NCBI GenBank assembly: GCA_030390025.1
Contig: CM059430.1
Coordinates: forward strand, 41,540,001 to 41,604,000
Length of the DNA stretch: 64,000 bases
Origin: Squalus acanthias
Lineage: Eukaryota
Direction: 5' to 3'
Position 1 is the first letter of the stretch. Each line of letters begins with the position of its first letter. Position numbers and translations under genes: made by a program. Under the pieces are notes generated by a model. That model was given only the letters and a program-made list of their open reading frames with translations, was not told the DNA's origin and did not search any database. Below are positions 21,030-64,000 of this stretch, piece after piece.

Positions 21030-21031
21030 CT

Positions 21032-38154: not shown

Positions 38155-38265
38155 GGGCCAGGGTTTTCTGCTTGTGTGCTCATCAGCCTTCAATTTTGCC
38201 CACTTTCATTTTAGTCGAGAGAAAATTCATTGGCTGGTGAGCGTGCAAGTGGAAAACCCTGGCTT
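38155..38265. mobile_element. Small palindromic MITE
   Basis: Perfect 12-bp inverted repeat GCCAGGGTTTTC (38157-38168) / GAAAACCCTGGC (38252-38263). Confidence 0.55.
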
Positions 38266-40371: not shown

Positions 40372-42075
40372 TTTGACCTGGCTGGTAACATCCTTATCAG
40401 GTTTGGGCCAACAGGGAACTCTTCCTCCTCCTAACAATGTTTTTGGTCTCACTGATGGGATCAGTGCGATTTTATACTACAGCCCAAAAAGTCAATCTTG
40501 CACAGGAAAATTAATAACAACATAATCCACTAGAACAGTCAAAGGCTCCATGTCCTAGCGGCAAAGCAAGAACAGTTTATATATAAAAAACTGATTCCTG
40601 CTTTAACAAAAATCACAACGCAATATAGATTATATACCATTTGGAGATGAACAATTTAATTGGTTTGTTTTAGTACTTCTTAAAAACCATGCTGCTGCAC
40701 AGAATTGAAGTGTTATGTCCTCCAGTGCGTGGCCTATTAAAGGGACATTGTTGTCCCACCGGGAAGGGTGAAAAGGTGAGTAATTATAGTAACAGCTTAG
40801 AACAGCTTAAACAGTTACCAACAGGGATGGAAGCATCCAAGTAAACCCTGTGGATCTCCAAAATGATTTCAATAATGGTATTCTTGAACAGTAAACAGTG
40901 ACCATAGTCTACTGCTATCCTGCGGACTGTAAATAGTCCTTTAAAGATTCCACTTGATAACTGGCATCATAAAATGCTACAGTATCATTACTATACTAGC
41001 TTATTGATAACAGTAAATTCTTTAAGTGTACTGTAGGACAACATAGGTGACAAATGTTGTTCATATTTGCTGATACTTCACCAGAATAAATCTATATTTA
41101 GGCTCGAAGAGAGTGTATATTAGATTACATTTAATTTTGTTTTTGTTTTGTCTGCAGAATTGAGCAGCTTTCATGTCTAATCCACAAATTAAATCGAAAT
41201 AATACATGGAACATGATAAGAATTTTAGCGAATAAAGATGTAAGTTATAGGTAGATTTACAATAATTAGAATTTAATGCAAACTAAGAGGTCCTCCAGAA
41301 TCGCAGTGCGATAGTGAAAAGACTGACAGTTGAGCCACATGTAAAATTATTTACTGTTCTTAAAGCCTCAAATAATAATTATACAAGTCTTAAAAGTTAA
41401 ATATTTAAGAAGTGCCAATAACAATTAACAAAAAGGAAAGGGACAAAATACAGTGCACTGCTTACTTAATGAGTCATCATTCACTAATTTAATCCTCTCT
41501 GAGGTAATTAGGTTTACCAAGATCTCATTTTCCAATATTGGTAGATGAACAATGAAGATTTGCCAGCTCAGATAAAGAGTAGTTCAGAGACAAAGGGATC
41601 ACGGGGATCATTGTTAACTTCAATGGAATGAAAATTGGGCGGGTTCTACAGTACTCAAGATAACAGATGGAACTTCATACTTCACAGTCAGGTTATTGCC
41701 CAAGCGGGGAGGTTGAAAATGACCCCCCACATGTTTTCTTTGTTATCTCTTTTCTCGATGATATTTTACAAGTGGTAGTTTCTGTCAGCAAAAGCACTGC
41801 AAAGGTTCTTGGCAAGGTTAGGTCCATTTGACAGGCCTTTGACCCGGTTAGTCATATCCTTATCAGGATTAGGCCAACAGGGAACACTTCTTCCCATTCA
41901 TTTTTTTTTCGATCTCGTCGATGGGATCAGTGTGATTTGATGCTACCATCCAATGAAGTCAATCTTGCACAGAAAAATTAATAACATAATCCATTGGCTC
42001 CATGTGCTAGTAACAGAGCAAGAACAGTTGATACATAAGTAAATCGTTTTGGCTTTAACTAAAATCAGAAAGCAT
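40372..42075 (+). repeat. Diverged ~250-bp direct duplication (40372-40622 and 41838-42075)
   Basis: Collinear shared blocks: atccttatcagg, ggccaacagggaac, gatgggatcagtg, aagtcaatcttgcacag, aaattaataaca, ggctccatgt, gcaagaacagtt, ctttaac.aaaatca. Confidence 0.85.
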
Positions 42076-42254
42076 TTTATATTAAATTCATTTAGAAAAG
42101 AAAAATAGCAAAGCCATATCAGTTACCAGCATGAACTCTAAAATTGCTCCTGATAGGCAAAGCAATGATTTCCTCTGTGAACAATTTGTACAGTAGCTAC
42201 TTTTTCTTTCTATAAATAGACAAAAAGAGACTTGCACTGTCAAACTTACTTAAT

Positions 42255-43285
42255 AGATTAGCGGGTGACATAAAAGGGATCCAAAAGTCTTTTATAAACA
42301 TATAAATAATAAAGAATTAGTCAAAGGAAGGGTGGGCTAATTAGGGACCAAAAAAGAGATCTTCTTGTGGACACAGAGGGCATGGCTGAGGTACTAAATG
42401 AGTACTTTGCATCTGTCTTCACTAATGTCACAGTAAAGGAGGAAGTGATAGAGAAATTGGATAGGATAAAAATAGATAAAAAGGAGGTACTTAAAGATTG
42501 GCAGCGTTCAAAGTCGAAAAGTCACCTGGCCCGGATGGGGTGCATCCTAGGTTGCTAGGGAAGTAAGGGTGGGGATAGTGTAGGAACAGAGAGAACTGGG
42601 GGGGTGTATGTACACAAATTCGTGAAGGACAAGTTGAGAAGGCTGTTAAAAAAGGATATGGGATCTTGGCTTTATAAACAGGACCATAGAGTACAAAGGC
42701 AAGGAAGTTATGCTAAAACTTCATAAAACACTGGTTAGGCCTCCGCTGGAGTACTGTGTCCAATTCTGAACACCACACTTTAGGAAGGATGTCAGGGGCT
42801 TGGAGAGGGTACAGAGGAGATTTACGAGAATACTACCAGGGATGAGGGATTTCAGTTATGTGGAGAGACGAGAGAAGCTGGGATTGTTCTCCTTAGAGCA
42901 GAGAAGGTTAAGGGGAGATTTAATAGAGGGGTTCAAAATCATCAAGAGTTTTGAGAGAGTAAATAAGGAGAAACTGTTTCTACTGAAGAGTGGGCTGGTA
43001 ACCAGAGGACACAGATTTAAGGTCATTGCCAAAAGAGCCAGAGGTAAGGAGAATTTTTTTTTACGCAGCGATTTATTATGATCTGGAATGCACTGCCTGA
43101 AAGGGTGGTGGAAGCAGATTCAATAGTAACATTCAAAAGGGAATTGGATAAATACTCGAAGGGGAAAATTTGCAGGGCTATAGGGAAAGGGCAGGGGAAT
43201 AGAACTAATTGGATAACTCTTTCAAAGAGCTGGCACAGGAACAATGGGTCAAATGGCCTCCTTCTGTGCTGTGTCATTCTATGAA
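42255..43285 (+). mobile_element. CR1 LINE fragment with internal deletions
   Basis: ORFs MAEVLNEYFASVFT, ERVQRRFTRILPGM and IWNALPERVVEADS. Confidence 0.85.
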
Positions 43286-43484
43286 AGATGGAACTAAGGG
43301 CACAACTTGGTGCTTCACCAATTAAAACAAATTACCAATGATAGTTGTCATACAAAGAGGATAAAAACAGGACTTGACTGGGTCCTGAAGCTGAATGATG
43401 TCTGATAGAATCACTCTTCTTATTGTTATTGAATTCTTATGTTCTAAACTATAAATAATCCACCAAAATAACCTTTGACTTTTT

Positions 43485-44770
43485 ACATAGAATGTACAGC
43501 ACAGAAACAGGCCATTCGGCCCAACTGGTCTATGGAGGTGTTACATAGGATTACATAGGATATATGGCACAGAAACAGGCCATTTGGCCCAACCAGTCCA
43601 TGCCGACGTTTGTGCTCCACATGAGCCTCCTCCTGTCTTTTCTCATCTAACTCTATCAGCATAACCCTCTATTCCCTTCTCCCTCATATGCTTATCTAGC
43701 CTCCCCTTAAATGCATCTATACTATTTGCCTCAACTACTCCCTGTGGTAGCGAGTTCCACATTCTCACCACCCTATGGGTAAAGAAGTTTCTTCTGAATT
43801 CCCTATTTGATTTGTTGGTGACTATCTTATATTGATGGTCTCTAGTTATGCTCTTCCCCACAAGTGGAAACATTCTCTCTGTATCTACTCTATCAAAACC
43901 TTTCAGAATTTTAAAGACCTCTATTAGGTCATCCCTCAGCCTTCTATTTTCAAGCGAAAAGAGACCCAGCCTGTTCATCCTTTTCTGATAGGTATACCCT
44001 CACATTTCTGGTATCATCCTTGTCAATCTTCTCTGCACCCTCTCCAGTGCCTCTATAGCCTTTCTATAATATGATGACCAGAATTGTACGCAGTACTCCA
44101 AGTGTGGTCTAACCAAGGTTCGATACAGGTTTAGCATAATTTCACTACTTTTCAATTCTATCCCTCTAGAAATAAACCCTAGTGCTTGGTTTGCTTTTTT
44201 TATGGCCTTGTTAACCTGTGTCGCTACTTTTAGTGATTTGTGTATTTGGATTCACAGATCCCTTTGCTCCTCTACCCCACCTAGACTCGCACCCTCCAAG
44301 TAATAAGTGACTTCGCTATTCTTACTTCCAAAATGTAATACCTCACATTTATCTGTGTTGAACTTCATTTGCCAATGATATGCCCATTCTGCAAGTTTAT
44401 TAATGTCCTCCTGTAATTTGTTGCAGTCCTCCTCAGTATTGACTATCCCCCCCAATTTGGTGTCATCCGCAAATTTAGAAATTGTGTTTTTGATTCCAAA
44501 GTCGAAATCGTTAATATAAATTGTGAACAACAGTGGTCCCAGCACTGATCCTTGTGGAACACCACTACCCACCTTCTGCCACTGTGAATAGCTACCCTTT
44601 ACCTCTACTCTCTGCTTTCTGTCTTGAATCCAGCTAGCTATCCAATCTGTTATTGTTTATGCTCCACACAAGCCTCCTCCCATCCCTTTCATCTAACCCT
44701 ATCAGCATAACCTTCTATTCCTTTCTCCCTCATGTGTTTATCTAGCCTCTGCTTAAATGCATCTAAGGCT
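43485..44770 (-). mobile_element. CR1 (~43543-44650) nested inside another CR1 3' end
   Basis: ORF 44252-44572 (SGVPQGSVLGP...KFADDTKL) and ORF 43643-43978. Host sequence ctatggaggtgtt|...|tgtttatgctccacac resumes at ~44654. Confidence 0.85.
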
Positions 44771-46625
44771 ATTGAAGTAAATTGTTAAAAATGGAAGAAA
44801 CCTTTACCAAAAATGATTTTTGATTTTCAGAATTAAAGTGTGTCACATTGCAAATAATCCAACAGAGAAAATCATAAGTGGCATCATCAATACCAGTATT
44901 GTAAGCCTGCAGAGATATTTAAAGAGCCCTGCCTTTCAAAAATAATAGGTTTCTGCTTTGCTCACTTCAGTCAAGTGTTGCAAAGCAAGGGATGCTGTGC
45001 ATCAAAGCCAGCTTGTAACATGGCACTGTCTCAACGCCAGGGCAGTTCCATTCCTTCTGGCAATGCATGCTGGAGGATTATGACTACATGCCCTGCCTGC
45101 TTGGATTATAGAGCTACGCCACGTTCCACAGAATTACAGCTCATTAATAAAGCAGACATTGTTCAAATAAAGCAAAAAATTAGAATAATTAATGAATGCA
45201 ATGAACCTTTTCATTTCTGCAGGACCCCTAGGGGCCTTTTCCACCCCCACAGTGCCACTCTAAATTCTCAGGTGCAGGTACTGTAAGCAGAGGCCAGTTT
45301 GAAATTGGTATTTCAGCACTTCTCAGTGTAATAAGATTAGAAACACTTCAGTTTACTGAAAAGATCATTCAAACAATTCAGTAAGAATAGTATTTTTTTA
45401 AATAAAGGCTGACTTAGTCAAATAAATGGTGTGTCTAATTCAGCTACATGCTGGCACATTTAGTGACTGTCTTTCCGCATAATGCAACCAATTGTAACAC
45501 CTGCCGCAGGAAAAATGTGCAAACTAGCGGGTGTCCCGTGGCATTGCTCACCATAAGTCAGACGATATATTTGTGGTCTTACTTGTCTCCGCACTGCAGC
45601 TTCTCTCTTCTTCTGATTGTAGGGGGAGAAATTTCCTCCATGCTCACAATCAGGTGGGATTGTGGCGGAGAATGAGACAATATTCAGGTGACAAAAGCCC
45701 TGCAAGATAGCGGCAGGCCCCAGTGCCAGTAAAGGTCCACGCAAACACCTGAAGGCCCTGGTCTTGGCGCAAGGGCTCCCTCTTTATGGCAGGAATGCTG
45801 CCAGGAGCCCACCGAGCATCACAAATGAGCCCTTCTCCAGGAAAATGGGTCGGGATTGGTGTGTATTTGGAAGGGTGGGCAGACCTGCCCTGCTGGACGA
45901 GGAGAGCCCTGCCCTGTGTCGCTGTTGGTTCTCTCTTCTTTACCTTATTTGGCATTATCTTTTTTTTTAAACTGTTCTGGGAGACTTTTGGGGGGATTTC
46001 TTTGTCTGGGAGGTGGTAGGGGAGGATAGCGAAAGGATAAAGGACAGGAAGGAACAGATGATTGGGGTATTTCGGGCAGGAAGTGGTAGGAGTGAGAGGG
46101 AAAAGGTGAGTGCTGGGTGTTGTTAGGGCTAGAGGAGGGAAGATGACGAGAGCTGGGTTGAGGGAGGCTATCTGCCTGGGACAGGAGTCAGGGTGGGAGC
46201 GGGAACAGCTGGAGTGGGGCCCGAAAAGCAGCAAGGCCCCAGGTGAGCAGACTAGGCAGAAGGCCAGTGGGGCTGGAGAATTTTTTTAAGAAGGTACATA
46301 TACAATTACATTTAAACTTAAAGAAATAGAGAAAATAATTTTAAAAATAAAACTTATCTGCAGGAAAGGGTGGACCTGGGTGACTTACGCCACAGCGCCA
46401 TCAGTGTTGGCAGGCCTGCAATTGTGTGCTGAAAGCTCAAAGCACTTTTAATGACTTCTAGTGTTATAGGGTGCATAAAAGGTCAGTGATCAAGTGAACA
46501 GCAGCAACAACAACAACTTGCATTTATATAGCACCTTTATATAGGGGTGAGACCATGAATGGATTTGAGCACAAGGATCAGAATTTTAAATTTGAGGTTA
46601 TATATGCTGTGCCGATTTGTATTTC

Positions 46626-46735
46626 TTCACTTCACCTGACGAAGGATTTCAAATAAAACTGTTGGACTATAACCTGGTGTTGTGCGACTTCTCACTTTTG
46701 TCCACCCCAGTCCAACACCGGCATCTCCGCATCAT
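46626..46735 (+). mobile_element. Penelope-like mini-element, family B; hammerhead internally deleted
   Basis: ttcacCTGACGAagg^atttcaaataaaactgttggactataacctgg...gcatctccgcatcat; stems II and III are missing relative to 54412-54450. Confidence 0.75.
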
Positions 46736-47086
46736 AGCTACAGGTAAGTGTATCATCAAACTGTAGAGCCTAGAAATTGGTTTGCCCCCAAAAACGGGGG
46801 CAGGGATTGCGATGTGCGATTAACTTGCGCTCGTTTGGAGGAATGCAGGCAGCATGCGAACTTCGTGCTGCCTGCTCATTTCCATGATTATGGCTTTCAG
46901 CCCAGCGTTGAACGCGCCAGTGAATGGCTGAATACTCAGCGGGGGGACCAAGTTTGTGCGAGGTGAGCACCAATTAAAGCTAGCCTGCACTGCTTAAAGG
47001 CAGTCTGCACCTCTTAAAGGGGAGGTGCATTCTGCCTGCAGCAGCTCATTGAACTGGCAAGGATAGACAGTGAAAAACAATTAACG

Positions 47087-47323
47087 ATGGCACAACAGAG
47101 GAGAGAGTATGCACCAAAGTTCTTGGATGCAGCACTGAAGGTCTTGGAGCAGGAGGTGGATAGGAGGAGAGAGGTTTTCTTTCCACAGGCCAGGAGGCCC
47201 TCCAAGCAACAGTGCAAAGTGCAGTGGGAGTACATAGCTACTGTGGTGAATGCCAGCAGTGTAGCCTCAAGGACGTGGACGCAGTGCAGGAAGAAGTTTA
47301 ATGACCTCACACAAGTGGTCAAG
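47087..47323 (+). pseudogene. Harbinger Myb/SANT (MSANTD-type) DNA-binding domain exon
   Basis: MAQQRREYAPKFLDAALKVLEQEVDRRREVFF...WEYIATVVNASSVASRTWTQCRKKFNDLTQVVK; the expected donor reads atcagt instead of gtcagt. Confidence 0.85.
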
Positions 47324-48874
47324 ATCAGTGAATTTATCTTCAAATGCCATATCCCACCATCTGTACCACTAGCCTCAGACACTGCTCAATGCATCACTCA
47401 CCTACAAACAATCTCTACCAATAATGACTCATACCTCACATTCATACCTTCACCTCACTCTCACATACTTACCACTTCTGCAAGCCTCACACCCATATCT
47501 CACAGCTTGCACACACTGAAACCTATTCAACCATGACAGGCACATCACCCAAACACATTGCACCACACTCACTGACAAACTTCTCTCTCTCTTGCAGGAC
47601 AAGGTGGCTTAAAGCCAGCGCCAGCAGTACCTAACCGGCAGGGGACAGGCTCACCTGATAACCTCACCCCCATGGAGGAGATGGTGCTGGCAATTCTTGG
47701 GAGGGGCATCGCTGAGCCCGTGGCCAGCGACGGGGCTTAAAGAATATAAGATGCCGGTATCCTCATACGTAATCCTCCTTCTCACATCCCACTTCGTCCT
47801 CGCCCCACAATCTCTTCTGATTTACAAGCTGCACATGGTGTAAGCGTGCACCTGTTGCTTTTAACCCCCTCCCCTCTCCACAACCCTAACCTTGTGCCTT
47901 TCTCATTTCAGAGACCCAAGAAATCCAACCTGCCCAGCTAATGGTATAAGAAGAGGGAGAGGAGAGTGATGAAGAAGAAAAACCATCAATCGATCAGACA
48001 CTCGCAGCCACCAGCTCAGATAAGAACATAAGAATTAGGAGCAGGAGTAGGCCATACGGCGCCTCGAGCCTGCTCCGCCATTCAGTAAGATTATGGCTGA
48101 TCTTCAACCACAACTCCACTTTCCCGCCCGATCCTCATATCTCTTGATTCACCTAGAGTCCAAACATCTATCTCAGCCTTGAATAAACTCAACGATTCAG
48201 CATCCACAGCCATTTGGGGTAGAGAATTCCAAAGACTCACAACCCTCTGAGTGAAGAAATGCCTCCTCATCTCAGTCTTAACTGGCCGACCCCTTATCCT
48301 GAGACTATGCCCCCAGTTCTAGACTCTCCAGCCAGGGGAACCAACCTCTCAGCATCTACCCTGTCAATCCCCCTCAGAATCTAATATGTTTCAATGAGAT
48401 CAACTCTCAATCTTCTAAACTCCAGAGAGTATAGGCCCAATCTAATCAATCTCTCCTCATTGGACAACCCTCTCATCCCAGGAATCAATCTAGTGAACCT
48501 TGGTTGCACCGCCTCTAAGGCAGGTATATCCTTCCTCAGATAAGGGGACCATAACTGTGCGCAGTACTCTAGGTGTGGTCTCACCAAAGCCCTATACAAT
48601 TGTGCCAAGACTTCCTTATTCTTGTACTCCAACCCCCTTTCAATAAAGGCCAACATGCCATTTGCCTTCCTAATTGCTTGCTGTACCTGCATGCTAACTC
48701 TCTGTGTTTCCTGTATGAGGACATCTAAATCTCTCTGAACACCAACATTTAATAGTTTCTCACCATTTAAAAAATATTCTGTTTTTCTATTCTTCCTACC
48801 AAAGTGAATAACCTCACATTTCCCCACATTATACTCCATCTGCCACCTTATTGCCCACTCACTTAACCTGTCTA

Positions 48875-49206
48875 CAGGAAACTTTCGTTTATCCGGCACC
48901 CAAATATCCGGAATTCTCGCTTAACCGGCAAAAATCAGGTAAGTTTTATTGTACAGACAAGACCCCGATTCTGACCTTTCGCCCCCACGAAAGGGGGGTC
49001 AAAGTTCTTCCGACTCGGACCTGTCACAGCCACGGAGGAAAAAGCCGGAGTCTCGTTTACTTTCCCTCTCCGGGTCCCAATTGTTAAGCCTGTGGCCGTG
49101 TACGGGGCTCTCGTACCTTGGTAAGTATAGCTCTCTGTAATCCGGCACTTTCGATCAACCGGCACCACGCCGGTCCCGTCGGTGCCGGATAAACGAAAGT
49201 TTCCTG
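48875..49206. mobile_element. pogo/Tigger-like MITE (young)
   Basis: Perfect 26-bp TIR CAGGAAACTTTCGTTTATCCGGCACC and TA TSD; removal restores CR1 ctgtcTAtatccctttgca (compare 11441-11460). Confidence 0.92.
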
Positions 49207-49228
49207 TATATCCCTTTGCAGACTCTTT

Positions 49229-50026
49229 GGGCTGGATTTTGTCAATGGGGACGTGATGGAGGCGGGACTCCCACTTTTTGGGTTGTAGTCCCGCCAACCC
49301 ACTGTATTTTCCCTTGATTGACCTTGTTAAGCCCGCCAATCAAGGGTCCCTTGGATACAGGTGACGTCAGCCATTGAAATTTCATCTGTCAAGAGCTTTT
49401 GACAGATGAAATTTCAGCATTTGACAGCTCTGTGAAGCTGTCAAACACTGACAATATGATTTCTAACTTGAGTCCCTGTACTTAGACTGAGTTAGAAATC
49501 AATCCAGCACAGAAAGCAGACTGCAGCTTTTGACAGCTCCGCGGCCATTCTGCTTTCTATGCCGGTGAGCTGAGGGACTCCCGAGAACTGAAGGAAGGAA
49601 GCCTGCAGGACAAAGTTAAGGTAAGTAAAAGTTCTTAAAAAACTTTACACACGTCAAACACACTTACCTCTGCACTCATGCACCCATCACTCACCTGCAC
49701 ACCGGACATCTCGACCCCTCCAAACCGACGGTCCGCCTCGCTAAATCGGTGTGGTTCGGACCTGTCGGGAAGCCCACACTTCAGGGCTAAAAATAGGGAT
49801 TAGGCAAAAAACTGCCTGTTAACTACCTGTTAACAGGCAGTTTATTGGCACTAATCCCCTTCCCGCCTCAGGGAGGCGGGTCCCAGCACAAGTCGGGTAC
49901 CCGCCTCCTGGGAAACTGGCATGGAGGCGGGTTGGGGGCGGGATGGGTTCGGGACCCCCGAATCTGCTATTTTCCCACCCCACATGCCTCCAAACCCGCC
50001 TCCACGGGTCAATGAAAATTGAGCCC
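49229..50026. mobile_element. PIF/Harbinger-type MITE with internal hairpins
   Basis: TIRs GGGCTGGATTTT / AAAATTGAGCCC, 3-bp TSD TTT; removal restores the CR1 sequence. Confidence 0.85.
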
Positions 50027-50460
50027 TTTGTGTTCTCCTCACAGCTTACTATCCCACCTAGCTTTGTGTCGTCAGCAAACTTGGATACATTACACTCAGT
50101 CCCTTCATCTAAGTCATTGATATAAATTGTAAATAGCTGAGGCCCAAGCACTGATCCTTGTGTCACCCCACTAGTTACAGCCTGCCAAACTGAAAATTAC
50201 CCTTTTATCCCTACTCTCTTTTCTGTCTGTTAACCAATCCTCTATCCATGCTAATATATTACTCCCAACCCCATGAACCCTTATCTTGTGTAACAACCTT
50301 TTATGTGGCACCTTATCGAATGCCTTTTGGAAATCCAAATATACTACATTCACTGGTTCCCCTTTATCTACCCTGCTAGTTACATCCTCAAAAAACTCTA
50401 ATAAATGTGTTAAACACGATTTCCTTTTCATACAACCATGTTGACTCTGCCTAATCATTA

Positions 50461-51214
50461 TGGGCCGTAATTTGCGACCCCTTTGGGTGTGTATGAGGTG
50501 CACATGTGCCCGTAGGGGCCGCGCAAGTTCCAGGTTTAGGAATGCGAAGCGCATGTGCTAAAACCCAGAACTTGCGATCTGTCAAGAATCTTCTTGACAG
50601 ATGATCCGCATCCCCGGGAAAAGGGCCTCCGCTGGCAGAGAGTTGCGCTATTTGCCCAACTTCTGCCCAGCGAACGCCCGTGAAATTCTTACGCCTGGTA
50701 AAAGCAGGCATAAGGCCTGCTTTTACCAGTGTATGAGTTTTAATAAATAGAAAAATAAAATGTTATCACTCATTTAAATATTAAAAACCCTGTCCAATAA
50801 GGTACATTTATTTTTAGCCCCGTTTAAGCATATTTTAAAAAATTTCAAAAAATTAATTTTTGTTAAAAATATTTAATTAAATGGCATTTTAATTAATTTT
50901 AAATATGTAATTTTTAAAAAACTTATTTCATGTGTTCGTGTATTTTTTAAGTGATCTCCATTCATACTTGCAGAATCCCCATAAGTATGAAGGGGGATTC
51001 CCCTTCTTTCATTGGTTGGGCCGGCCCACGTGATCCCAGGGGCACCTGCAAACCGCCTGTGCCCCTGGGATACGTGGGCCTCTACCCGTGGGTACCCGGA
51101 GAGGCCCAGGAGCGCGAGTCTCCAGACCTCCCGGACCACCAGGTAAATTCGCAGATTTTTTGCAGGTCGGAGGCAACCGCCCGCAGGAAGACCCCGACCG
51201 CAAATTTTGGGCCA
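50461..51214. mobile_element. PIF/Harbinger-type MITE
   Basis: TIRs TGGGCCGTAATTTGCG / CGCAAATTTTGGGCCA, canonical TTA TSD (50458-50460, 51215-51217). Confidence 0.88.
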
Positions 51215-53099
51215 TTATGATTTTCTAAATGCCCTGTTACCACTTCCTTAATAATGGATTCCAGCATTTTCCTGACAACTGATATCAGGTTAACTGGCCT
51301 GTAGTTCCCTGTTTTCTCTCTCTCTCCTTTCTTGAATAGCGGGATTACATTTGCTACCTTCCAATTCTCTGGGACCATTCTAGAATCTAGGGAATTTTGG
51401 AAGAACACAACTAATGCATCCACTATCTCTGCAGCCACCTCTTTTAGAATCCTAGGATGTAGGCCCTCAGGTCCAGGGGATTTGTCAGCTTTCAGTCCCA
51501 TTAGTTTCTCAAGTACTTTTTCTCTACAGATCTTAATTACTTTAAGTTCCTCACTCTCATTAGCCCCTTGGTTCCCCACTATTTTAGAAGGTAGCTTAGA
51601 GGTGGGATCTGCACGTGGTGAGTCACCGGGCACGAGTGGGCTGGAGCCGGGGCAGGGGGAAAGGGTACCGAATGTGCCAGCTCTCCGGAGGGCAAGGTTG
51701 CATGCGAGTTCTGCTGCAGAGTACTCAGACGAGGACTTCGATGGGGCAGCCTACAGAGGAACGCTGATGGGTATGCACAATGAAGTGATTGGTGCATTGG
51801 CAGGCCTGCCAGAAAGCCTGAGTGCAATGTCAAGGTGCATGGAGGTGCCCAGCACCAACCTTGCACAGGGCTTTGTGCAGAGCTTGGAGCCCATGATTTC
51901 CAGCGTGGAAGGGGTGGGCAGATCCATTAGCGCACTTGTGGACCCAACCATGATGCAGCATCTGATGTCTCAGCTTCCATTGGAGCATAAGCAGAAGCCA
52001 CCCAATATCTGAGTGCTGCTGTGGAAGCTCAGACTGAAGTCACGCAAGCTCAGACTGGTCTCATGCAAGCTCAGACTGCTGCCAGCATGGAAAGGGGCTT
52101 GCAGCGTGTCACAGCAGTCCAGCAATCTGTCCTCCAACAGATGGCTAGAAATGCTGAGGAGTGGCAGTGGCTCCATGGAGCAAGAACCTGCTGTCCTCTC
52201 TCAGGATGACAGCATTCGTCCTCCCACCACTGCCACTCCGCCAGTGCCCTTGTTGTTGCCTGTCAACCAGCCCAGCCTGCTGCCACCTATGCCGAGGCGG
52301 TGTAGTCCACAGCTGGGCCTTCTAGGCTCAGAGGTGCTCGAGGTCGTCCTGCAAGGCCATCTGCAGTCTCCCCCACTGAAAGTCAGCAGCCTTCCACCAG
52401 CCATGCTGCAGCCACTGGGGTAGCACTTCATAGGAACACTAGGGGTGGTTAGTTGACTTTGTTATGTAATATTGGATGGATTGATGTTTGAAGTTGGATT
52501 GGAATGTTTCTTTTGTGGTGGCTTTTATTTCAGCATTGTGCCCAAGAGGACACTGTGATGGTCAGTAACAGAGGGAAGGAAAGGTGCAGGACTATTGTTG
52601 AATGGGGAATTGGGGTTGCATTCACTGGTACCACAGTCAGATGATTTGATCACTGACAGAAAGGGGCTGTCTGAGTTGCCTCCTCCCTTCCACTTCCTCC
52701 TCTTTGGCTTCCTCCTCCTCCTGCTCCTCCTCCTCCTCCTCCTCAGCTGGTTGCCGTATGCCTGGTGGCAAGGTCGGTTTCCTCATAATAGCGAGGTTGG
52801 GGAGCATATAGCAGACCACGACGAATTCTGGGACACGTTCTGGTGAGTACTGCGGGGCTCCTCCAGAGCGGTCCAGGCAGCGGAAGCATTGTTTAAGGAC
52901 GCCAATGGTCTGCTTGATCAGATTCCGTGTGGCAGCATGACTCTCATTGTATGCATGCTGCCCACGTGTGGTTGGGTTGCGGAGCAGAGTCATGAGCCAG
53001 GTGGGTCAACGGATAGCGTTTGTCGCCCAGTAGCCACCCTCTGGTTTGTTGTGGTGGCTCAAAGACTGAGGTAACAGCGGACTGGCGCAGAATAAAGTG

Positions 53100-53558
53100 A
53101 TCGGACACCCCCCCCCCACCGACCCTTCCGATCTCCTTCACGAGGCCTCCGATCTCACCTCCCACCCACCGATCCTTCCGATCTCCCCGCTGCTCTGACC
53201 CCCGAGCTTCCTTGTGGCCTCCAGACTTCGCTCACCCCCTGCTCTCTGATGTTGCCTGGCTCAGGACTCCGATCTTACCCCCCAGCTCCAGCCTCCTCGA
53301 CATCCCCCGGCTCAGGACTCCGATTATCCTCCCCCCCCTCCCCCCACCCCAGCCTCCTGATCCCTCCCTCTCTCCTCTCTGCTCCTTGTGCCGAAGGCCT
53401 ACCCCCCCCGACAGCCAGCCAGCCTCTCAATCTGGCAGGTAAACGGAGACAAAAATTTTAGTCAGGTCCTGTCTTTAAATTCTTCCGGGTTTCCCAACCT
53501 CAATCCAGCGCCCCCCCCACCAACGCTCCCTCCCCACTTCAGAGTTAATATCCAGCCC
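53100..53558. mobile_element. Harbinger-MITE right arm with C-rich short tandem motifs
   Basis: Ends aatatccagccc (reverse complement GGGCTGGATATT, like the 49229 TIR); repeated ccttccgatctcc and ggctcaggactccgat. Confidence 0.5.
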
Positions 53559-53620
53559 TCCATTTCCAGATTATCTTTCAATGAAACATGCGGCCCACAT
53601 ATAAGATACCTAAAGATTTT

Positions 53621-53855
53621 ACATAAGAACATAAGAAATAGGAGCAGGAATAGGCCACTTGGCCCCTCGAGCCTGCTCCGCCATTCAATAAGATCATGGC
53701 TGATCTTGGGCTCAAAGCCACTTCCCCGCCCGCTCCCCATAACCCTTCACTCCCTTATCTTGCAAAAGTCTGTCTATCTCCACCTTAAATGTATTTAATG
53801 ACCCAGCCTCCACAGCTCTCTGGGGCAGAGAATTCCACAAATTTACGACCCTCTG
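53621..53855 (-). mobile_element. CR1 3' UTR fragment
   Basis: acataagaacataagaa tail; reverse complement of 29280-29510. Confidence 0.88.
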
Positions 53856-54323
53856 TTACATGTTAGCTTACACTTTCATTTAGTTTTTCTGACGGAGAAA
53901 AATGAAGACTGCTCTTCAAAACAGTACCAGGTATTTCTTGGGAATCTCATGAGATTTCAGTGGTCACATGACCAAACCTTTGATAAATACTTGTCAGTTG
54001 GTACAATGTACATCAATGATCATCTACACAGTGCCAAGAGTTTCATTCAAAAGAAGTAAAGTTTGATCGGGAGTTATGTGACGTAAATGATTTGTTGTGA
54101 CAACAAAAAGGTTACTCTAGAAATCAAATCTGATTTAATTGTATTTGCAAAAGAAATACCTTTATCTACCCGAACCATATTTTCACCTTCTCTCTTTATC
54201 TGCTGTTATATACCCATTTAACACCTTGTAAATTTGTCCTACTTTCCTCATTTGCTTATTCTTTCTTGATTAGACTGATCAGTGTCACAAGGCAAGCTTC
54301 TATCCTTGTTGCAGTATAGGTTT

Positions 54324-54452
54324 TGATGTGGAGATGCCGGCGTTGGACTGGGGTGGACAAAAATGAGAAGTCGCACAACACCAGGTTATAGTCCAACAGA
54401 TTTATTTAATTTTACAAGCTTTCGGAGCGGTTCGCTCCTTCCTCAGGTAAGT
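54324..54452 (-). mobile_element. Penelope-like mini-element, family B, with complete hammerhead motif
   Basis: Reverse complement of 46626-46735 but with the full ribozyme core; may extend to ~54500. Confidence 0.8.
54412..54450 (-). ncRNA. Minimal type I hammerhead ribozyme motif (family B), sense to the TOX3-like pre-mRNA
   Basis: UUAC-CUGAGGA-A-GGAGCG(AAC)CGCUCC-GAA-AGCU-U^GUAA: all core nucleotides, 6-bp stem II, palindromic stem III, stem I UUAC/GUAA; predicted cleavage between 54416 and 54415. Confidence 0.85.
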
Positions 54453-54499
54453 TAGCAGTGAGAGAATCTCCCAGAATTCACAATTTAAACACAGACAAA

Positions 54500-57080
54500 A
54501 TCTATTCAAATCTTGTCCAGGTGGCTGGTTTTAGGTGGCAGATCCCATAAGGATATCGGGGTCGTGGAAGAGGGCAGCACTGCAGAATAGGAGCCTTCAC
54601 TCGACCTGACATTTGCAGACACCAGTTCAGAGACTGACATCCCGCGTAGTTCAGAGGGGAGGCAAGTGGGGGGGGGGGGGGTGGTGGTCGGCACGTGGAC
54701 ATAACCCAGGACGTGGGTGCAGGAGCAAGGGCAGGGGGATAGGATGGCCCAGGAAATAGCTTGCCAGAGGGACAGCTTGCATCCTAGCCCTGCTGCACAG
54801 GGTTCAGATGAAGCTAGCGAGGGCCTACCATACATAAGCAGGTTGATGGCAATCCACAGGGCCTTTCCAAGTGCACTGGGCTGCCTGCCAGCTAGCTTGC
54901 CTACAATATCGGAGATCACAGGGGAGTCCAGCTCCACCTTGTGTGCTATCTTCACGCACGGAATCGAGACCATGCAGTCAACCATGGAGCAGGTGGTCAG
55001 CTCTTTGAGCACTGCAGGAGGATGTACAGTGATGGAGCCTCTAGTGACAGCTCAGACTGCTGCCATCTTGGATCTGGCTTACAATGCCTGAAGGAGAGCG
55101 TGGTTCTGGGCTTGGAGAGCCTCCCAGCACGCCTGCACTCTGTTCTCACACAGAGCAGTGGGATGCTGTGGCTCAGTGCTGGAGGGTGGCATTAGCTCCA
55201 TGAGAGAGGCACATATTATCCTCTCTCAGGATGACAGCAGCTCTGCTCCCCCGCCAGCCTCTCAACCAGTGCCCTTGTTGGTGTCAGACAGCTAGCTGGC
55301 CCGAACTGCCCCAGCTGAATCAGAGTTCCTGCATTCTGCAGCTGGGTCGTCAGCAGCCAGAGCCCCTCGAGGTCCCCCTCCACGGACATCTCAAGTGCCC
55401 GCAGCGGAAGTTTAGCAGCCTTCCACCTCCCAAGCTGTAGGACCTTGTAGCAGCACTAGGAAAGGGCACCAACCATCAAGACAGGTCCCTAGGGCTTTGC
55501 ACAAGGGTGATTTGTAGAAAGGCATCAATCATGTAAGCGTCTGTGAAATCAAGAATGGAGTCTGTTGGAAGTATAAATGTTTTGTTTTGGTTTAGCTGTT
55601 GCTCTTCATAATCTTAGTGATGTGACAGGAACACACAAGTTGTTCAGTTTTGAGGGCATTGATATGGTGGGTGTCAGGACTGGGTCGAATGGAAGGAAGG
55701 AGTGTTGGTGCTCTGGGCAGGGGAAGGATTGTTATGGGGAATCTCTCTTCAATAATTTGCTGCCTTACAGCTCTGGCAGCTCGCTGTACTGCTGCGTGCT
55801 CTTCTTCTGCATCGTAAGGCTCCTCATCTCCATCTTCCTCCTCCACTGGCAGCTCCAAGGCAATTTCCCTTTGTATGACATGACTGTGGGATATGCAGCA
55901 AGCAATGCCAAATCTTAAGACTTGCTCTCGGCTGTATTGAAGGTCTCCTCCCGAGTTGTCCAGACAGCGGAACCGTTGTTTCAGAATGCCAATGCTTTGC
56001 TCAATCAGAACCCTTGTTGCTGCACGGCTCTCATTATATGGCTCCACATCTGTGCCCGGGTTCCTGACCAAGAGTCATGAGCCAGCTGCTGCGGGGTTAG
56101 CCATTGTCCCACAGTATCCAGCCTGCTACCTGATGATCTGGGTGGGACAGAGGGGGTATTGAGGACTGACGCAGTATGAAAGCGTCATGAATACCGCCAG
56201 AAAGCCGGGCGCAGACCTGCATGAATCGCTGCCTGTGGTCACAAACAAGGTGAGCATTGCCCTTCCTGCTCAAAAACAGAGCTGGTTCGTGATGAGGAGC
56301 GAGCAAGGCCGCGTGTGTGCAGTCTATGATGATCGGTTCCTGAATACCCACGTGCTATAATGCCTCCCCCGCCCTTGTCTCCTTTACCTTCTTCCTGCAG
56401 CCTGTGCAGGTCTTTGCTCCCTTCCTTGTTGCTGCTCCTCCTCCTGATTTGAGAGCCTCAATGTTAAGCCCAGCAGCATTCCCAAGTTCAGTAATTCAGA
56501 ACAAGGAAATCCTGTGAAACAGTTTGTGCCCTCCAAATACTCACTTTGTAAAAGTATTAAAACAGAAACAGTAGCCAAGCCAGCCAAAAATTTGCTCAAA
56601 AGCACCCCAGAAGCCTAAAACAGCAAATCAGAGACTTACCTTAATTGAAGTGAAAAGTCGCACAACACCAGGTTATAGTCCAACAGCTTTATTTGAAATC
56701 ACAAGCTATAACCTGGTGTTGTGCGACTTCTCACTTTTGTCCACCCCAGTCCAACACCGGCATCTCCGCATCATTACCTTAATTGAGGGGAGGATCCCTT
56801 GAAATGCCGCTTGTGAAAGCTGCTTGCCAGCTTTACCGTCATGACATGCTGGGTGGGTTAAGCAAGTGACATTTCAGGCGTGCATGGACACCAATTTCAG
56901 AAAAGGGCCCTGATTCAGGCACAGGGCTCTTATTATCATATTTAAATGACGCCTGCACTTGTTGCAGGCAGCCACCTTGGGCGTCTATCAAGCACTCAAA
57001 GCGGCGCACTGCTGAATCTGACTTCGCTGCGCCCATTTTGGACCCCGAAGGTACGCGAGACGCATTGCAATTTCTCCCCC
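54500..57080. mobile_element. PIF/Harbinger relic: Myb-gene 3' exon (+) and frameshifted HARBI1-like DDE transposase (-, ~55760-56351)
   Basis: IIDCTH, LVCDH, GGIHDAFILRQS, GWILWDNG and YNESRAATRVLIEQSIGILKQRFRCLDNSGG motifs; 54590-55460 parallels 47990-48020 / 51590-52440; TIR-like gcaatttctcccc at ~57067-57080. Confidence 0.85.
56649..56773. mobile_element. Penelope-like mini-element, family B (125 bp, internally inverted)
   Basis: Perfect 13-bp TSD TTACCTTAATTGA (56636-56648, 56774-56786); inverted arms agtcgcacaacaccaggttatag / ctataacctggtgttgtgcgact. Confidence 0.88.
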
Positions 57081-58387
57081 TCTAAGTGCCCTTCACCCTC
57101 TATTCAGCACGTACTACAGCAAGGAATAGAATTCTCCTGCTGGAGAATAAAAGTACCGTTCAATATCAGATGCTGGCTTTGACCATCACATAGCAGGACA
57201 GCTTAGTCCTGGCAAAGGAATATACCAGTTAGTGCAGTAAACAACAGAAATCTACAAATATTGCACAATGGATATCATCATTATTTCTGGGGGGGGGGGG
57301 GGAAATCCAGAGACGTACTACCATTGCTAATTCTTATTTTTGAAAGATTTTAACAGAAAATCTGGAATAAAAGGTTTATGGAGATGACAGAAACTCATAA
57401 TTCATTGTACATTGTATCACGTGTGCTCTGAGAAGCAGTTGCTTTGGATACCGTGTGGCACACAGCAGTCCCTCATTTAGAGCAATAACAAGAAGCTGAA
57501 TCTTTGTACGATTTGGCTTCTTTTTTTCCCCACTACAAATAACGTGATTCTTAAAAACCTGTCTTAAATGAAGGTGACCTTCTTGGGGCTATTCCCAACG
57601 TCAGCATCAAAAGATGAAGTCAAAAAGGTAAAACCCTGGCTGCATTGATGCCGACTTCCCCTTCCCGCATCCGAGACTGCACATTCTACAAATTAAGCAT
57701 TTCAACCAATGGACAAAACTGCAAATCTGCAGGAGCCACTTCAAAAAACTCCTCTGTAGTATACTTGAAATGTACAAACATTATCCTACCACTTGCAAGG
57801 GTTGGATTTGACTCCAGTCCAAAAAGTCTTTTTTCTGCTGTCAAAACTGAAGTAACTTTGCATGACCAAGCCCAGTTCCTTATAGTCCACAGCACAGAAT
57901 CGCTCATTAATTGGCAGTAAATTAATAAATTCACAGAATGGGCCATGATATACTGGGGCCGATGCGGGTGGCCTGCAGTGATGTATGATATTGTTGTGTC
58001 AGCTGACAGTAGATTTAAATCAAGTAGAATATTTGCCTTTCTCCAGCATGGACATCTTCAATAAACATAAAATGCATGATAATTGAATATACAATCTAAA
58101 AATGAAAATTAAACAGCAACCTCTTTATTCGCAGTTGTTAATTTTATAGCCCAGGAGAAATTCTAAAGTCACGCTCAGGGCACCAAGTCATAACTCTCAC
58201 CCAAACTTTAAATGCACGTTTACAGCATAAAATGATTTAGCTGGTGACCCCGAAACATACAACTCATCTCATCAATGTCACTGTCTGAATTAGATGATCA
58301 AATTCTACTCATCCTCCCCCTTAATTTGTTTCTATATTTCTGTTGTGGAGCTACTCACAATGAATTACAATAGAGTGAAGCTTTGTT

Positions 58388-59190
58388 TACAACAACAACT
58401 TACATCTATATAGCGCCCTTAACATAATAAAACGTCCCAAGGCACTTCACAGGAGCGTCATCAAAAAACAAAATTTGACACAGACATATAAGGAGATGTT
58501 AGGGCAGATAACCAAAAGCTTGGTCAAAGAGGTAGGTTTTAAGGAGCGCTTTAAAAGGAGGAAAGAGAGGTAGAGAGGCGGAGAAATTTAGGGAAGGAAT
58601 TCCAGAGCTTAGGGCCGAGGCAGCTGAAGGCACCGGCGCTAATGGTGGAGCGATTAAAATCAGGGATGTTCAAGAAGCGAGAATTGGCCGAGCGCAGATA
58701 TCTTGGGAGATTATAGGGCTAGAGAAGATTACAGAGATAGAGAGGGGTGAGGCCATGGAGGGATTTGAAAACAAGGATGAGAATTTTAAAATCGAAGCAT
58801 TGCTTAACTGGGAGCCAATGTAGGTCAGCGAGCACAGGGGAGATGGGGGAGCGGGACTTGGTGTGAGTTAGGACATGGGCAGCAGAGTTTTGGATGACCT
58901 CAAGTTTATAGAGGGTAGGATTAGGGACACCGGCCAGGAGTGCGTTGGAATAGTCAAGTCTAGAGGCAACAAAGGCATGGATGAGGGTTTCGGCAGCATA
59001 GAAGCTGAGGCATGGGCGGAGATGGGCGATGTTACGGAGGTGGAAATGGGCGGTCTTGGTGATTGAATGGATATAAGGTAGGAAACTCAACTCGTGATCA
59101 AATATGACACCAAGGTTACGAACCAACTTGGTCAGCCTCAGACAGTTGCCAGGGAAAGGGATGGAATCAGTGGCAAGGAAACAGAGTGAA
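58388..59190 (-). mobile_element. L2 LINE 3' fragment
   Basis: ORF 58719-59126 (VRNLGVIFD...SRLDYSNALLAG...LHWLPV...KILILVFKSLHGL) is an L2 ORF2 C-terminus; (caa)n tail at ~58390. Confidence 0.9.
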
Positions 59191-60019
59191 AATATTGCTC
59201 TGTCCCAATTTCATTAAAAAATATCTGAACACTACTGACACTCAAGATGGTAAGAATGTCCAAATGTTGTGTGAGCTTTACCCCAATATCATTTCTGGTC
59301 AACTTCAAGGTTTGCAATCCTGTTTGGAGCTTCCTTTTTTTCCTTCCTAAGCCAAAATGTGATTTTCGTTTCTCAAGTTGTTTTTCATCAATTCTTCCTG
59401 CAGTGCTTATTTTATTATTACATCGAGTTTCTGAGACAACTCATTTATTTAACTTTCTGCAACACATAATTCTTCTTCTAATGTGCTTTTCTCTTCAGCT
59501 GCCTTGAGTAATGTGTTGCCTTTACTCTGTAAATGTTGATCTAGTTTTGCCTTCTGTGTCTGTCTGTAAATTAATGTCCACAGGCAGCTCAATCAGCCAG
59601 CTCCTGATATAGTGACATTTTGTCAGGATAGACGATATTTCATTATATAAGAGCTCACTGTATAAAACTGCACCTGAACTTAAATAGATTATTCTTTTTC
59701 TCACAACTCCAGAAGCACTAAAGAGCAATAGTTGCCACTAAACCTTTTCATTTTTCTTGATTAGATTTTAACTTGAATTTATAAAATATTGTCAGCTCCA
59801 GGCATGTCTAATCTCATCATTTCTGTCACCCTTCAAATAAAGTCCAAGTTCTTAATTTTCATCATACAATAACCCACTGGGCAACAAACTTTAAATCAAC
59901 TGTTGTTGCGTAGGTACAGTTCAATAAAGAGATCTTTAAAATCATGGCTTTAGAAACATCCAGTTGAGCTGTAGAAGTATCTGAGGTTCTTTTCCTATTA
60001 TGAGGGTGAGAAATATAGT

Positions 60020-60641
60020 AGCCCTGAAAATCAATAGGCCTTTGATCCCAGCTTAGTTGCCGGGAACAGCCTGCCGGTGACCTCCTGCACTGAACCCACT
60101 GAAGTATGTGGGGTCAGGGGCAGGTCACCTCGTTTCCAATGCCACTCGGGGCACATCTCAGGCATCTTATGGAGAGGGAAGACCAGGAATCCTGGCATGG
60201 GGTACTTCTCCAGAGGTTAGGGGGTTGCCGAGGCCCCCTGGAAAGATCTGCCAGTAATGCCAATCGGCCATCTTTATAAGGGTTTCAAAAAAAATGACTA
60301 CATGACCCAGGCCTGGACCCCCCCAGGTGGGCTCTGCTTGTGCCAGTGGGCAAGCCGGCATGCCTTTGTTTTCTCGGCATCATGGCCCACTGGCAGGATC
60401 GCTGGCTGGGTACATGGAAACACCCAGTCTGGTAGTCCCACCCCACAGCCGTGCCCCATCTGACGTGGTGGGCCATGCTTGGGCAGGCGGAGGCTTCCCT
60501 CCAAACAAGACCCCACAGAAACTGCCAAGGAAAGCCGGGACCTGACCTATCTCTGTCTTGGCCTAATTTGCGATCATTCTGCTTCTCTCCCACCAGACTC
60601 ATGGTGGGTGTGCACTGGAAGGACTGGAGATTTTTGGCCCC
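60020..60641. mobile_element. GC-rich MITE-like element
   Basis: GC-rich island in AT-rich flanks ending gagatttttggcccc, resembling the GGG/GGC-starting TIRs elsewhere; left end uncertain. Confidence 0.35.
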
Positions 60642-63600
60642 AGTGTATAAATGTTCTCTTTCAGTATTAATTCAGTGAAAATGATTAAAGTCCATCAACC
60701 GCATGATCTTCCACTATGCGAGTTCCCAATCACAGTTATAATGCTTGGTTAGGAACATCGGGAGTTCCAACCACATATCTACAACAAAGGAGAGCTTCCG
60801 CTGGCCGTTCTTGAGCACCTCTTCATGGCCAAATTCAGAACAACACTGGCAGAGGCCTGCACCCTCACAACTGGGAATAATGCAGTTCCTGGTGAAATCC
60901 ATGTAAAAAGGAGGGAGAAAACTGAAAAGTCAGACTTTCAGCTTTAGAAAACTATATTTTATTAGGACTCCCTGCTAAACTAGCACCAGTTTGTGAATGT
61001 GTTTATTGGTTTATGTAAAACATTAAATTACAGGATCACATAAAACTTGGTTTTGTGTGTTTAGAAAGGCAGTTAAGGGATTTGCAAAGATAATTTGTAA
61101 TATGTAATCAGATAAGTTGTAGACTATTAATACTGTATGTGCTTAGCATTTGAAGCATCTTATAAGAACATCTTTATTTAAACTGTTGCCTCCATCCCCA
61201 CTAAATCCAACAGTTGACGCAAAACACCTGCATTCACGTTAAATCCTTTTATTAATACTATGATGTGATTAACATACCAAAGCATCTTGATATTACAACA
61301 TGGCTCTAAATGCTATTTCTTAGCTGAAATAATGGTCTTTAGTTCTAATATACATGGATTGAGTTGAAAGAGCTGCAAACTTCATAAATGTATCGGTTAT
61401 ATTAATGACTTTGTTTGTTTGATCATTGCACCTTCATCTTCCGTTGGAAGGGGGGAAAAGAGTCACTTTTCATCTCTTTTTATATGGTGAAACCAACAAG
61501 CTGGGTATTTTTGAAAACCCTGGTGAATATGTGAAAATAGCATAGTCATTCAGAAATTAAATCTGAATATCACCTCCCGAACAGAAATTTCCAGATACCC
61601 CACTTTTTACTGATTATGGTCTATAAATTTGATGTATGCAATGAAAAAAAGATATAGCATATCTATTACTTGCCTGACTGCAAATGTAATTGTCTAGCTT
61701 GTTCAATCCATTATGAAATGAACAAAGTGCTGCAATTCATATTGTTTTTGTTGAACTTTTTTTTTTCAGAATTTTGTTTTTTAAATGCTGAGGGAATGGA
61801 TCATACACTTTAGGCTAGACGCAGACTATTTGCAATACTTGCAGACCAATGCTTAATGCATTCATATCACTTTTCTATGCTATTTTAACCCAAGTATTAA
61901 GCCATTTATTAAGTTATTTTAAGTAGGTCATGCCTCTGTTAAAATAACAGACTGAGGAATGTTATATGAATGTGTCACCCGTTCGTCCACTTTTATTGCA
62001 AACAGTAATTTCTAACCTTTACTATTATTAGATACCATTACTTATATCAAAAATCTTAAGTTAAGCACATTTCCCTTATAGGAAGCAATTAATAATAAAT
62101 AACATTAAAAATTAAAGGTTTTATGCAGATTAAGATAACAGGGTGTTTAAATTACATTTAAAATAACACATACCATATTCTTTAGAATGAGCATATGACA
62201 AAATGTCCTGCAGGATAACCTGATCAGGAAGGTCATTGTGTACTGCAGGATAACATTTAGGATTTATATTGTTTTACACTGTTGAATAAGGTTCTGGAGA
62301 GTAATTTCATATTTAACCTTTCAAAGCGTACAGGGTGAATGATGGAAGTTGCTGTTGCCTTTGGAGTCCGTAAACTCAAGTCAAGATGTTCAAGCGGCAC
62401 GAAAGTTTATTTACTACTCCTTACCACATCTGCCTACAAGCCTCCAATGGTGCAACAATAGTCACTCTGACATTCCTCAGGAGCATTCAGAATTCAGAAA
62501 ACATAATCCGCATTGTCTTCAGATTTCTAGCACTGCGCCAGTGCAGAAAGCTAAATCCAGGTTAACGAGAGCTAAATGGGAATGGAAACTAAATCACACA
62601 AAAGCGCAAGTACTTTGTTAGACATGGCAATCCGATTTCTTCACCATTCCCAAACATCAAATTTAAATGGTTAATTAAATCGACACCAGTTACAGCAAAT
62701 GGAAACATGTCTGCTGACCCATGTGACTTCTTTAAAAAAAAAGACTGCATTTGTTATCATTAAGCATTTAAAATTATATTAATACAGTAACCATTAGAAA
62801 ACAAATCTTTGGTCAGGCAGCCAGTGTAGAATGAACGAGTAAGGTGGTAACTGGGTCTGTAGGCGGTTGAGGCTCAATCCTTTGTCAATAGTAACCTGAG
62901 AAGATAACAGATGCAATGATTTGTAAAAGATAATGGCCGCCTCAATAGCTGGATACCGAGACATGGCACACTGAAAAGAGAACTGGGAATACAAACCAGG
63001 GCACTGTTACAAAACACTGCCTTTATGAAACATGATACCTAGGCCTGGCAGTACTGTAAATACAAATCATTTACTGTACCATATGTCCAGGGCTTTAAAA
63101 GTCAATGCCAGTCGCCTAGGAGGATTTGAACCACTTTCAATCACAAAGAAACAAGCTGTGTTCCGCTCTGTACTCTGGGTAGCAAAGCATTTATGCTCAG
63201 TGTCACTATAGAAGGCAGTAGTGTTTTTTCAATTAACTGGCAACACAATACAGCAGCCAGCACCAATCTAAATGTACTTTAGAGTTTTGCCCATTTATTA
63301 CCTTTTCTAATGCATACAGCATAACAGTAGAACACAGTCTCAGCCTTCTGACAAGAAAAACAAAACTCACCATAGAACTAAGTACAAGGACATTTTAATA
63401 ATATAACTATTTTTTTCCATACATTTTTGCAACATAGCTGAACGTATTAATTCTGTAGAAATGCTTTCGATAGAATGCCAGTAATTTTCCTGTCTAATGC
63501 CCTGTTTATATTGTGGTCCCCATAGAGACTACATTCAGTTTGAATCAGGATGATCTGAACTGTATACAATATCCTAGGGTTTATATTGGCAGCTGCCCAG

Positions 63601-63767
63601 ATTCAGTTCAGGTACCGGGCATTGTTAAATTACCAGCCAAACACATGTGCTGAACCTTACTTTCATGCAGAAAATGGTTACGGTGTTTGGACCTGCCATT
63701 TATACCAGCCTGATTTGAACCTCCTTATTCAGTCCAAATCACTCTGAGATCAACAAGCTGAAGCCTT

Positions 63768-63954
63768 GGAGGTAAATTTAACCTAATGCGCCCAGCGGGA
63801 AATGGACGGGATTGGGTCGCATGCCATCTTGACGCCCGGCCCATTTTACTCTCCATTGAAGTCAGTGGAGAGTAAACTCAGGTGGGCTGTCCAACCAGCA
63901 TTCGACCCGATCCCGTCAGTTTCTCACTGCGCAGGTTAGGTTAAAATTATCCCC
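63768..63954. mobile_element. Fully palindromic MITE (Harbinger/Chompy-like)
   Basis: TIRs GGAGGTAAATTTAACCTAA / TTAGGTTAAAATTATCCCC; central palindrome ttactctccattgaagtcagtggagagtaa. Confidence 0.75.
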
Positions 63955-64000
63955 TTTACTCTGAATTACAAGTGAAATCAATTACTCTATCAGTTGTATA

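Follow-up and report, generated by a model that had tools for sequence, protein, structure and literature searches.

A minimal Penelope-type hammerhead motif, likely inert, in intron 1 of a TOX-family gene of Squalus acanthias

We consider it very probable that the hammerhead motif in intron 1 of a TOX-family gene of S. acanthias is a type I hammerhead motif of the minimal kind (min-HHR) from the pseudo-LTR (pLTR) of a young Penelope-like element (PLE) family, left behind by a recent, 5'-truncated insertion of 191 bp and likely inert at its present site. The insertion is identical to the corresponding part of an intact element, the motif occurs in many copies in the genome, the orthologous site is empty in two other organisms, and the intron holds no matching partner for the motif on the same strand. 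Since the lone copy cannot close helix III, cuts in the pre-mRNA of the host would be rare or would not happen. Positions refer to the window, i.e., the whole stretch of 64,000 nucleotides that was analysed, and are collected in Table 1.

Read on the minus strand, positions 54450-54412 give UUAC CUGAGGA A GGAGCG AAC CGCUCC GAA AGCU U GUAA, with the complete CUGANGA...GAAA...UH core, a helix I within the 4 to 5 bp of min-HHRs, an unpaired base at 9/10.1, the G10.1-C11.1 pair and a palindrome in place of helix III. An earlier note on this DNA had described the core, a 6-bp stem II, a 4-bp stem I, the AGCU palindrome and the cut site, all of which we found as stated on rereading the strand. The cut is predicted between 54416 and 54415 because U17 lies at 54416; of 29 related copies, 22 have U and 7 have C at position 17. 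The pairs of helix II had predicted probabilities of 0.82 to 1.0 in all five contexts folded, and those of helix I ranged from 0.36 to 0.81 in the isolated 39-mer and from 0.09 to 0.67 in longer contexts.

Table 1. Positions of the motif, the insertion, related fragments and the host exons (window coordinates)
Feature	Position	Strand	Remark
Minimal type I hammerhead motif (min-HHR)	54412..54450	-	predicted cut 54416/54415; 309 exact matches genome-wide (control, 0)
Helix I	54450-54447 with 54415-54412	-	4 Watson-Crick pairs
Core C3-A9, CUGAGGA	54440..54446	-	read from sequence
Unpaired A, next after core	54439	-	A in 28/29 related copies
Helix II, 6 bp, 3-nt loop AAC, G10.1-C11.1 closing pair	54424..54438 (54438-54433 with 54429-54424)	-	G-C in 29/29 related copies
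G12 A13 A14, AGCU replacing helix III, U17	54416..54423	-	GAA 54423-54421; AGCU 54420-54417; U17 54416
AATAAA hexamer, 9 nt after predicted cut	54401..54406	-	in 38/38 anchored copies
Penelope-like insertion of 191 bp, truncated at its 5' side (pseudo-LTR 3' part + tail)	54324..54514	-	0/191 mismatches to L031 3' pLTR
Penelope tail, ~36 nt	54324..54359	-	inverted partner copies elsewhere stop about where tail starts
Head-to-head hammerhead pair, second family (palindrome ACGU)	20970..21021	both	antisense copy intact, sense copy without helix I
Related pLTR fragment, antisense to host, most of hammerhead deleted	46626..46734	+	
Related inverted pLTR fragments without core	56648..56779	.	
Related rearranged pLTR + tail fragments without core	35262..35340	.	
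Host exon 1	window-equivalent 71095-70994	-	in frame with exons 2, 3
Host exon 2, 66 nt, GC donor	18034..18099	-	in frame between exons 1 and 3
Host exon 3	2589..2855	-	start fixed at 2855; 3' end approximate
Host intron 1, ~53 kb	18100..64000, on to window-equivalent 70993	-	exon mapping

The insertion ends, at its 3' side, with the A of the start codon of its parent element. An intact copy of this parent (L031, ~3 kb) consists of a pLTR (3227-3562), an ORF of ~890 aa and a second pLTR (6265-6599), and each pLTR carries a hammerhead, with the two cores 3037 bp apart. Pfam recognised RVT_1 in the ORF above the cut-off (E 2.3e-8). The endonuclease signature GIY-YIG (PF01541) was matched with E 1.4e-4 when the C-terminal 146 aa served as the query and gave no match at E<=0.01 with the whole protein; the residues VVYLIRC...WYIG are visible by eye, and we count a C-terminal GIY-YIG as present, although its 22.5 bits are 0.1 bit under the Pfam cut-off of 22.6. 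The family furthermore has the single ORF with reverse transcriptase (RT), the pLTRs, the 5' truncation, the inverted 5' copies and the 30- to 40-bp tail of endonuclease-containing (EN+) PLEs. The linker that joins RT to EN reads CHGNLCKTC (CX4CxxC) in L031 and in a further copy, L032, which fits CX2-5CxxC and points to a parent element of the Neptune type. L031 (3227-6599) and L032 (2029-9184) have open frames of 919 codons, L032 being a large inverted double copy, and a search of the PDB with the element ORF gave no match. The family appears to be active, or to have been so until very recently.

When the motif and its surroundings (161 bp) served as the query against the same genome, 1,189 candidates were returned, and the 40 that were scored were all 99-100% identical. 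The 39-mer itself was counted 309 times exactly and 794 times with one mismatch allowed (reversed controls, 0), and a relaxed pattern matched at 55,604 places (reversed control, 0). Thirty fetched loci share a common 3' end with nested 5' truncations; 12 of them have an inverted partner, which stops ~36 nt before the common end. Together, the common end, the tail and the inverted partners make up a Penelope-like signature (10.1101/2021.04.23.441226, partial text).

For a view of variation within the AGCU family, 38 copies were collected by a downstream anchor in ~1.8 Mb. The earlier note had held that a core not conserved across genomic copies would speak against its reading; a recognisable core is kept in 29 of these copies. 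Among those 29, which were picked for having a core and represent related subfamilies, not independent events, pair 3 of helix I is U-A in 13, C-G in 13 and U-G in 3, pair 3 of helix II is A-U in 18 and G-U in 11, position 7 and loop II vary freely, and G10.1-C11.1 is constant. Judged by these variants, the hammerhead structure is kept between active subfamilies, and the conservation of the core shows a putative role for the element, not for the locus in the TOX intron. Single copies lose the motif by point changes in the core and by truncation, and in the older ACGU family only 21 of 67 fragments have a core, the losses including truncations. Three other organisms have related PLE families that cover the ORF in its full length and are for the most part 90-99% alike in the aligned pieces. 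The run search returned 12 runs (shares, 0.05-0.24); all of them consist of contigs, and their sources are other organisms or the gut metagenome of a fish. Four of these runs, aligned to the intact element, displayed related families and no RNA ends, a result that has no bearing on expression.

Could a motif this short have arisen by chance? The loose pattern CTGANGA-N5-35-GAAA is found 10 times in the window compared to 6.26 +/- 2.68 times in shuffled sequences, which is not significant, and an Rfam scan of the window at E<=10 gave 14 matches, none of them to a hammerhead and none at the motif. The Rfam miss fits the motif because it has no helix III. A strict descriptor, which demands a helix I of at least 4 bp, a helix II of at least 4 bp and a palindrome besides the core, has 2 matches in the window and none in 300 dinucleotide shuffles. 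A chance match is refuted by the shuffles, by the placement in the pLTRs of an intact PLE, by the 309 exact copies and by the structure-keeping variation between subfamilies, and we assign it a vanishingly small probability. A loose hammerhead-like pattern at 38165-38186, which fails the strict descriptor, lies within a long imperfect hairpin (38154-38266) with a weak Rfam match to a miRNA precursor (36.7 bits versus a gathering score of 95).

The window holds other mobile sequences. In the head-to-head pair at 20970-21021, the sense ACGU copy lost its helix I to the junction of the inversion. A long open LINE reverse-transcriptase frame of 511 aa occupies 8609-10462 on the minus strand, and there are many CR1-like 3' fragments and shorter open frames. 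The stretches at 55592-56074, 52637-53005, 8268-8690 (minus strand) and 47018-47536 (plus strand) resemble fragments of Harbinger-type nuclease and Myb/SANT-like genes.

The host gene, possibly TOX3 (a candidate paralogue label suggested by peptide motifs), runs along the minus strand, and the motif lies in its sense strand; the exon mapping bears out what the earlier note had claimed on both points. The motif follows exon 1 by 16.6 kb and precedes exon 2 by 36.3 kb. The gene is placed in the TOX family by an HMG-box exon ~9 kb past the low end of the window (PDB 2co9, TOX; E 3.5e-33); a PDB search with exon 3 gave no match. Exon 2 has a putative GC donor (GAG/GCAAGT, cut at 18034-18033 of the minus strand) that maintains the reading frame into exon 3.

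Contigs of two other organisms skip exactly 54324-54514 and join 54323 to 54515 with 6 other letters in between (X10 and X11 from one sample, X12 from the second organism of the same study; one contig each). Their match to the flanks has 11-12 substitutions plus gaps in ~420 bases and 1 substitution plus gaps in 106 bases. On this evidence, the insertion is younger than the split from both organisms. No target-site duplication was seen at the insertion, and searches of the same genome with the flanks gave no paralogous empty site; the 3' flank is unique in the genome, and the 5' flank contains an older repeat at ~54567-54673.

Because the same intron site is empty in two other organisms, the insertion is of young age, and a conserved ribozyme of the host is not what it represents. 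Domestication as an intronic ribozyme that regulates the TOX-family gene, as for the ultraconserved amniote intronic hammerheads or CPEB3, would suit a sense-strand motif in an intron of a developmental transcription-factor gene. Domesticated intronic ribozymes are single-copy; the motif is identical to a dispersed mobile family, its 4-nt palindrome gives no stable helix III, and the next exon is 36 kb away. With the orthologous site empty in two organisms, this reading is close to refuted, and we regard it as extremely improbable.

The next question is whether a lone mobile copy could cut the host RNA. The earlier note had classed the motif as a PLE-type minimal hammerhead, of a kind that mostly requires dimerisation through the palindrome for efficient cleavage, and this assignment fits the sequence, the placement in the L031 pLTRs and the published min-HHR model, in which the palindrome mediates dimerisation (PMC4209133, partial text). 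Apart from the motif itself, intron 1 contains no sense core of the same family. A single further core on this strand of the intron, at 20994, belongs to the second family and was ruled out as a partner in cis: its helix I is disrupted, and ACGU cannot fully pair with AGCU. In a nearest-neighbour model, which contains neither tertiary contacts nor protein, the double-hammerhead fold has -19.3 kcal/mol compared to -24.2 kcal/mol for two monomer ensembles, i.e., the dimer is predicted to be 4.9 kcal/mol less stable. As far as PMC4209133 is available in part, cleavage of the single min-HHR of S. mansoni was undetectable, and that of dimers and trimers was low. Of the Xenopus retrozyme dimers in the available part of 10.64898/2026.07.22.740005, 1 of 9 was cleaved and 8 were not. 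Together, the lack of a matching partner, the unfavourable dimer fold and the inactive published monomer argue against the cleavage of the intron by the lone copy that the earlier note had envisaged.

A low but real rate of cutting would be conceivable if the copy acted in trans with RNA of its family or were folded by the element protein, for example in the germ line. The core is intact and in sense orientation, potential AGCU partners are plentiful (the 55,604 matches), and L031 and L032 have intact ORFs. Moreover, the copy retains the segment from the hammerhead to the tail, and the 92 nt from the predicted cut to the end of the insertion resemble the 85-92 nt from the cut to the main start of reverse transcription in PAc, a Poseidon element of Anolis carolinensis whose motif cuts only with the element protein and is dispensable for insertion in vitro (Frangieh 2024, PMC11167929, partial text). 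However, PAc needed RNA up to +172, beyond its tail, whereas the window copy stops at the tail, and RNA-seq ends at the PAc site were looked for and not found (PMC11167929, partial text). Sense solo copies are fewer in introns (see below), but this lean is not tied to the core. Together with the partner and energy data above, these points make such cutting decidedly improbable. Engineered cutting by a hammerhead in the middle of an intron left splicing largely efficient (Dye 2006, Fong 2009), and a fast HDV ribozyme in an intron blocked splicing (both as summarised in PMC2995048, partial text).

The orientation of Penelope ends in introns was counted in 1.6 Mb between same-strand Pfam exon matches of about nine large genes, the gene strand being inferred from those matches. 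Outside the TOX locus, the solo pLTR units of the two families, pooled post hoc, numbered 13 in sense and 28 in antisense orientation (P = 0.028), a lean drawn from 41 units of about nine genes; 25 further pLTR units carry both orientations. Units with a core (5:12, sense to antisense) and without one (8:16) did not differ (Fisher P = 1.0), core-less copies being an imperfect control that perhaps lost the core after fixation. Intact solo copies of the AGCU family were 1 sense and 7 antisense (P = 0.07), and fragments of this family, counted with trimmed BLAST queries, 16:23 (P = 0.34). An untrimmed count of 128:129 was set aside, as its queries overran into adjoining repeats. The strict descriptor found intact motifs 16 times in sense and 24 times in antisense in 1.68 Mb including the TOX locus (P = 0.27), and the pattern that matched at 55,604 places in the genome gave 10 sense and 10 antisense matches in the introns, compared to 12.6 expected per strand. 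CR1 fragments showed no lean (151:129). In sum, sense copies may carry a small cost that has no tie to an intact core.

Other candidates for such a cost are the AATAAA hexamer and an acceptor-like CAG in the tail, where a pyrimidine run precedes a CAG (AG at 54349-54348) that is predicted to resemble a splice acceptor. Other PLEs have an intron in the 5' UTR, and the tail CAG may mark where a corresponding intron ends at its 3' side; the hammerhead would then be an intronic part of the element. In the second family, near 20930-20950 of the minus strand, a pyrimidine run and CAG likewise follow shortly after the hammerhead and close before the ATG. If the insertion acts on its host at all, it could do so through one of these signals, with the hammerhead as a passenger; the hexamer is present in every anchored copy, the pyrimidine run plus CAG in both families, and the roughly 2:1 antisense lean is independent of the core and absent from CR1. 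We nevertheless hold this route to be unlikely, given the 41 units behind the lean, in genes whose strand was inferred from Pfam matches, and the finding that no clear spliced joint at the CAG appeared in four contig runs aligned to the full element, contigs being unable to show its absence.

Our preferred model of a min-HHR left by a truncated Penelope insertion can be drawn as follows. The element protein would have started reverse transcription at the tail, as proposed from the PLE literature, and would have halted after 191 nt, and the cDNA would have been joined to the intron, replacing ~6 bp. Within a complete element, the motif in both pLTRs may process the element's own RNA, either as a dimer or with the element protein. 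The lone copy would cleave the host pre-mRNA at a rate near zero and would then decay neutrally, like older copies.

A more far-reaching idea is that the ~55,000 Penelope hammerheads are latent cut sites in host pre-mRNAs, switched on by element protein or partner RNA, and that the antisense lean is the trace of selection against them. Were this so, sense copies would be transposon-triggered intron nicks, and the conditional sites of RNA cutting in a vertebrate genome would number in the tens of thousands; we consider it highly doubtful. As found, the motif adds a further truncated copy to a class of elements known since 2014 and carries little weight. The very young age of the family and its intact ORFs make it well suited to the question of what the PLE hammerhead does, and the locus is of practical use in that the empty allele is known in relatives.

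Compared to the min-HHRs of PLEs (PMC4209133, partial text), the motif is alike in its type I core, the short helix I of 4-5 bp, the unpaired base before helix II, G10.1-C11.1, the palindrome at 15.2-16.2 in the absence of helix III, the location in both pLTRs, and the state of most copies, which are solitary and truncated with some nearby inverted pairs. Helix II has 6 bp here and 7-8 bp in Schistosoma, and the 55,604 relaxed matches stand against ~2,000-9,000 copies there, numbers obtained by different search methods. Sharks are not named in the text of PMC4209133 and the one supplement that were searched.

With the Neptune EN+ PLEs (10.1101/2021.04.23.441226, partial text), the parent element shares the single ORF with RT followed by a C-terminal GIY-YIG, the CX2-5CxxC linker, direct pLTRs, inverted 5' copies and a 30- to 40-bp tail on one end; the window copy has only the last 191 bp. 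The placement with Neptune is made by the linker and not by a tree, and Nematis elements also carry a (reduced) linker finger. This finger is absent from Penelope/Poseidon. In PAc, the hammerhead is likewise upstream of the tail with similar spacing, and insertions end at the tail boundaries, but the ORF starts inside the hammerhead, whereas here the ATG lies 91 nt after the cut, at the end of the tail (PMC11167929, partial text). The tail is described in the available parts of both papers.

The amniote RECK-type hammerheads and the HDV-like ribozyme of CPEB3, whose half-life is 2-3 min, have in common with the window motif that a self-cleaving-type motif lies in sense in an intron (PMC10919898, partial text). 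They are conserved, whereas the motif described here is multicopy, lineage-specific and without helix III, with an activity that is putative at most. The non-LTR retrozymes of animals are also derived from pLTRs, of type I and present in a chondrichthyan (10.64898/2026.07.22.740005, partial text); they are tandem arrays with at least 2 motifs, whereas the window copy amounts to one truncated end, on its own, of an element that is autonomous. Our literature search, whose coverage stopped short of some supplements, subscription journals and Repbase, retrieved papers on the class and none that treats this family in sharks. The window motif is a further member of the class known since Cervera and De la Pena 2014.
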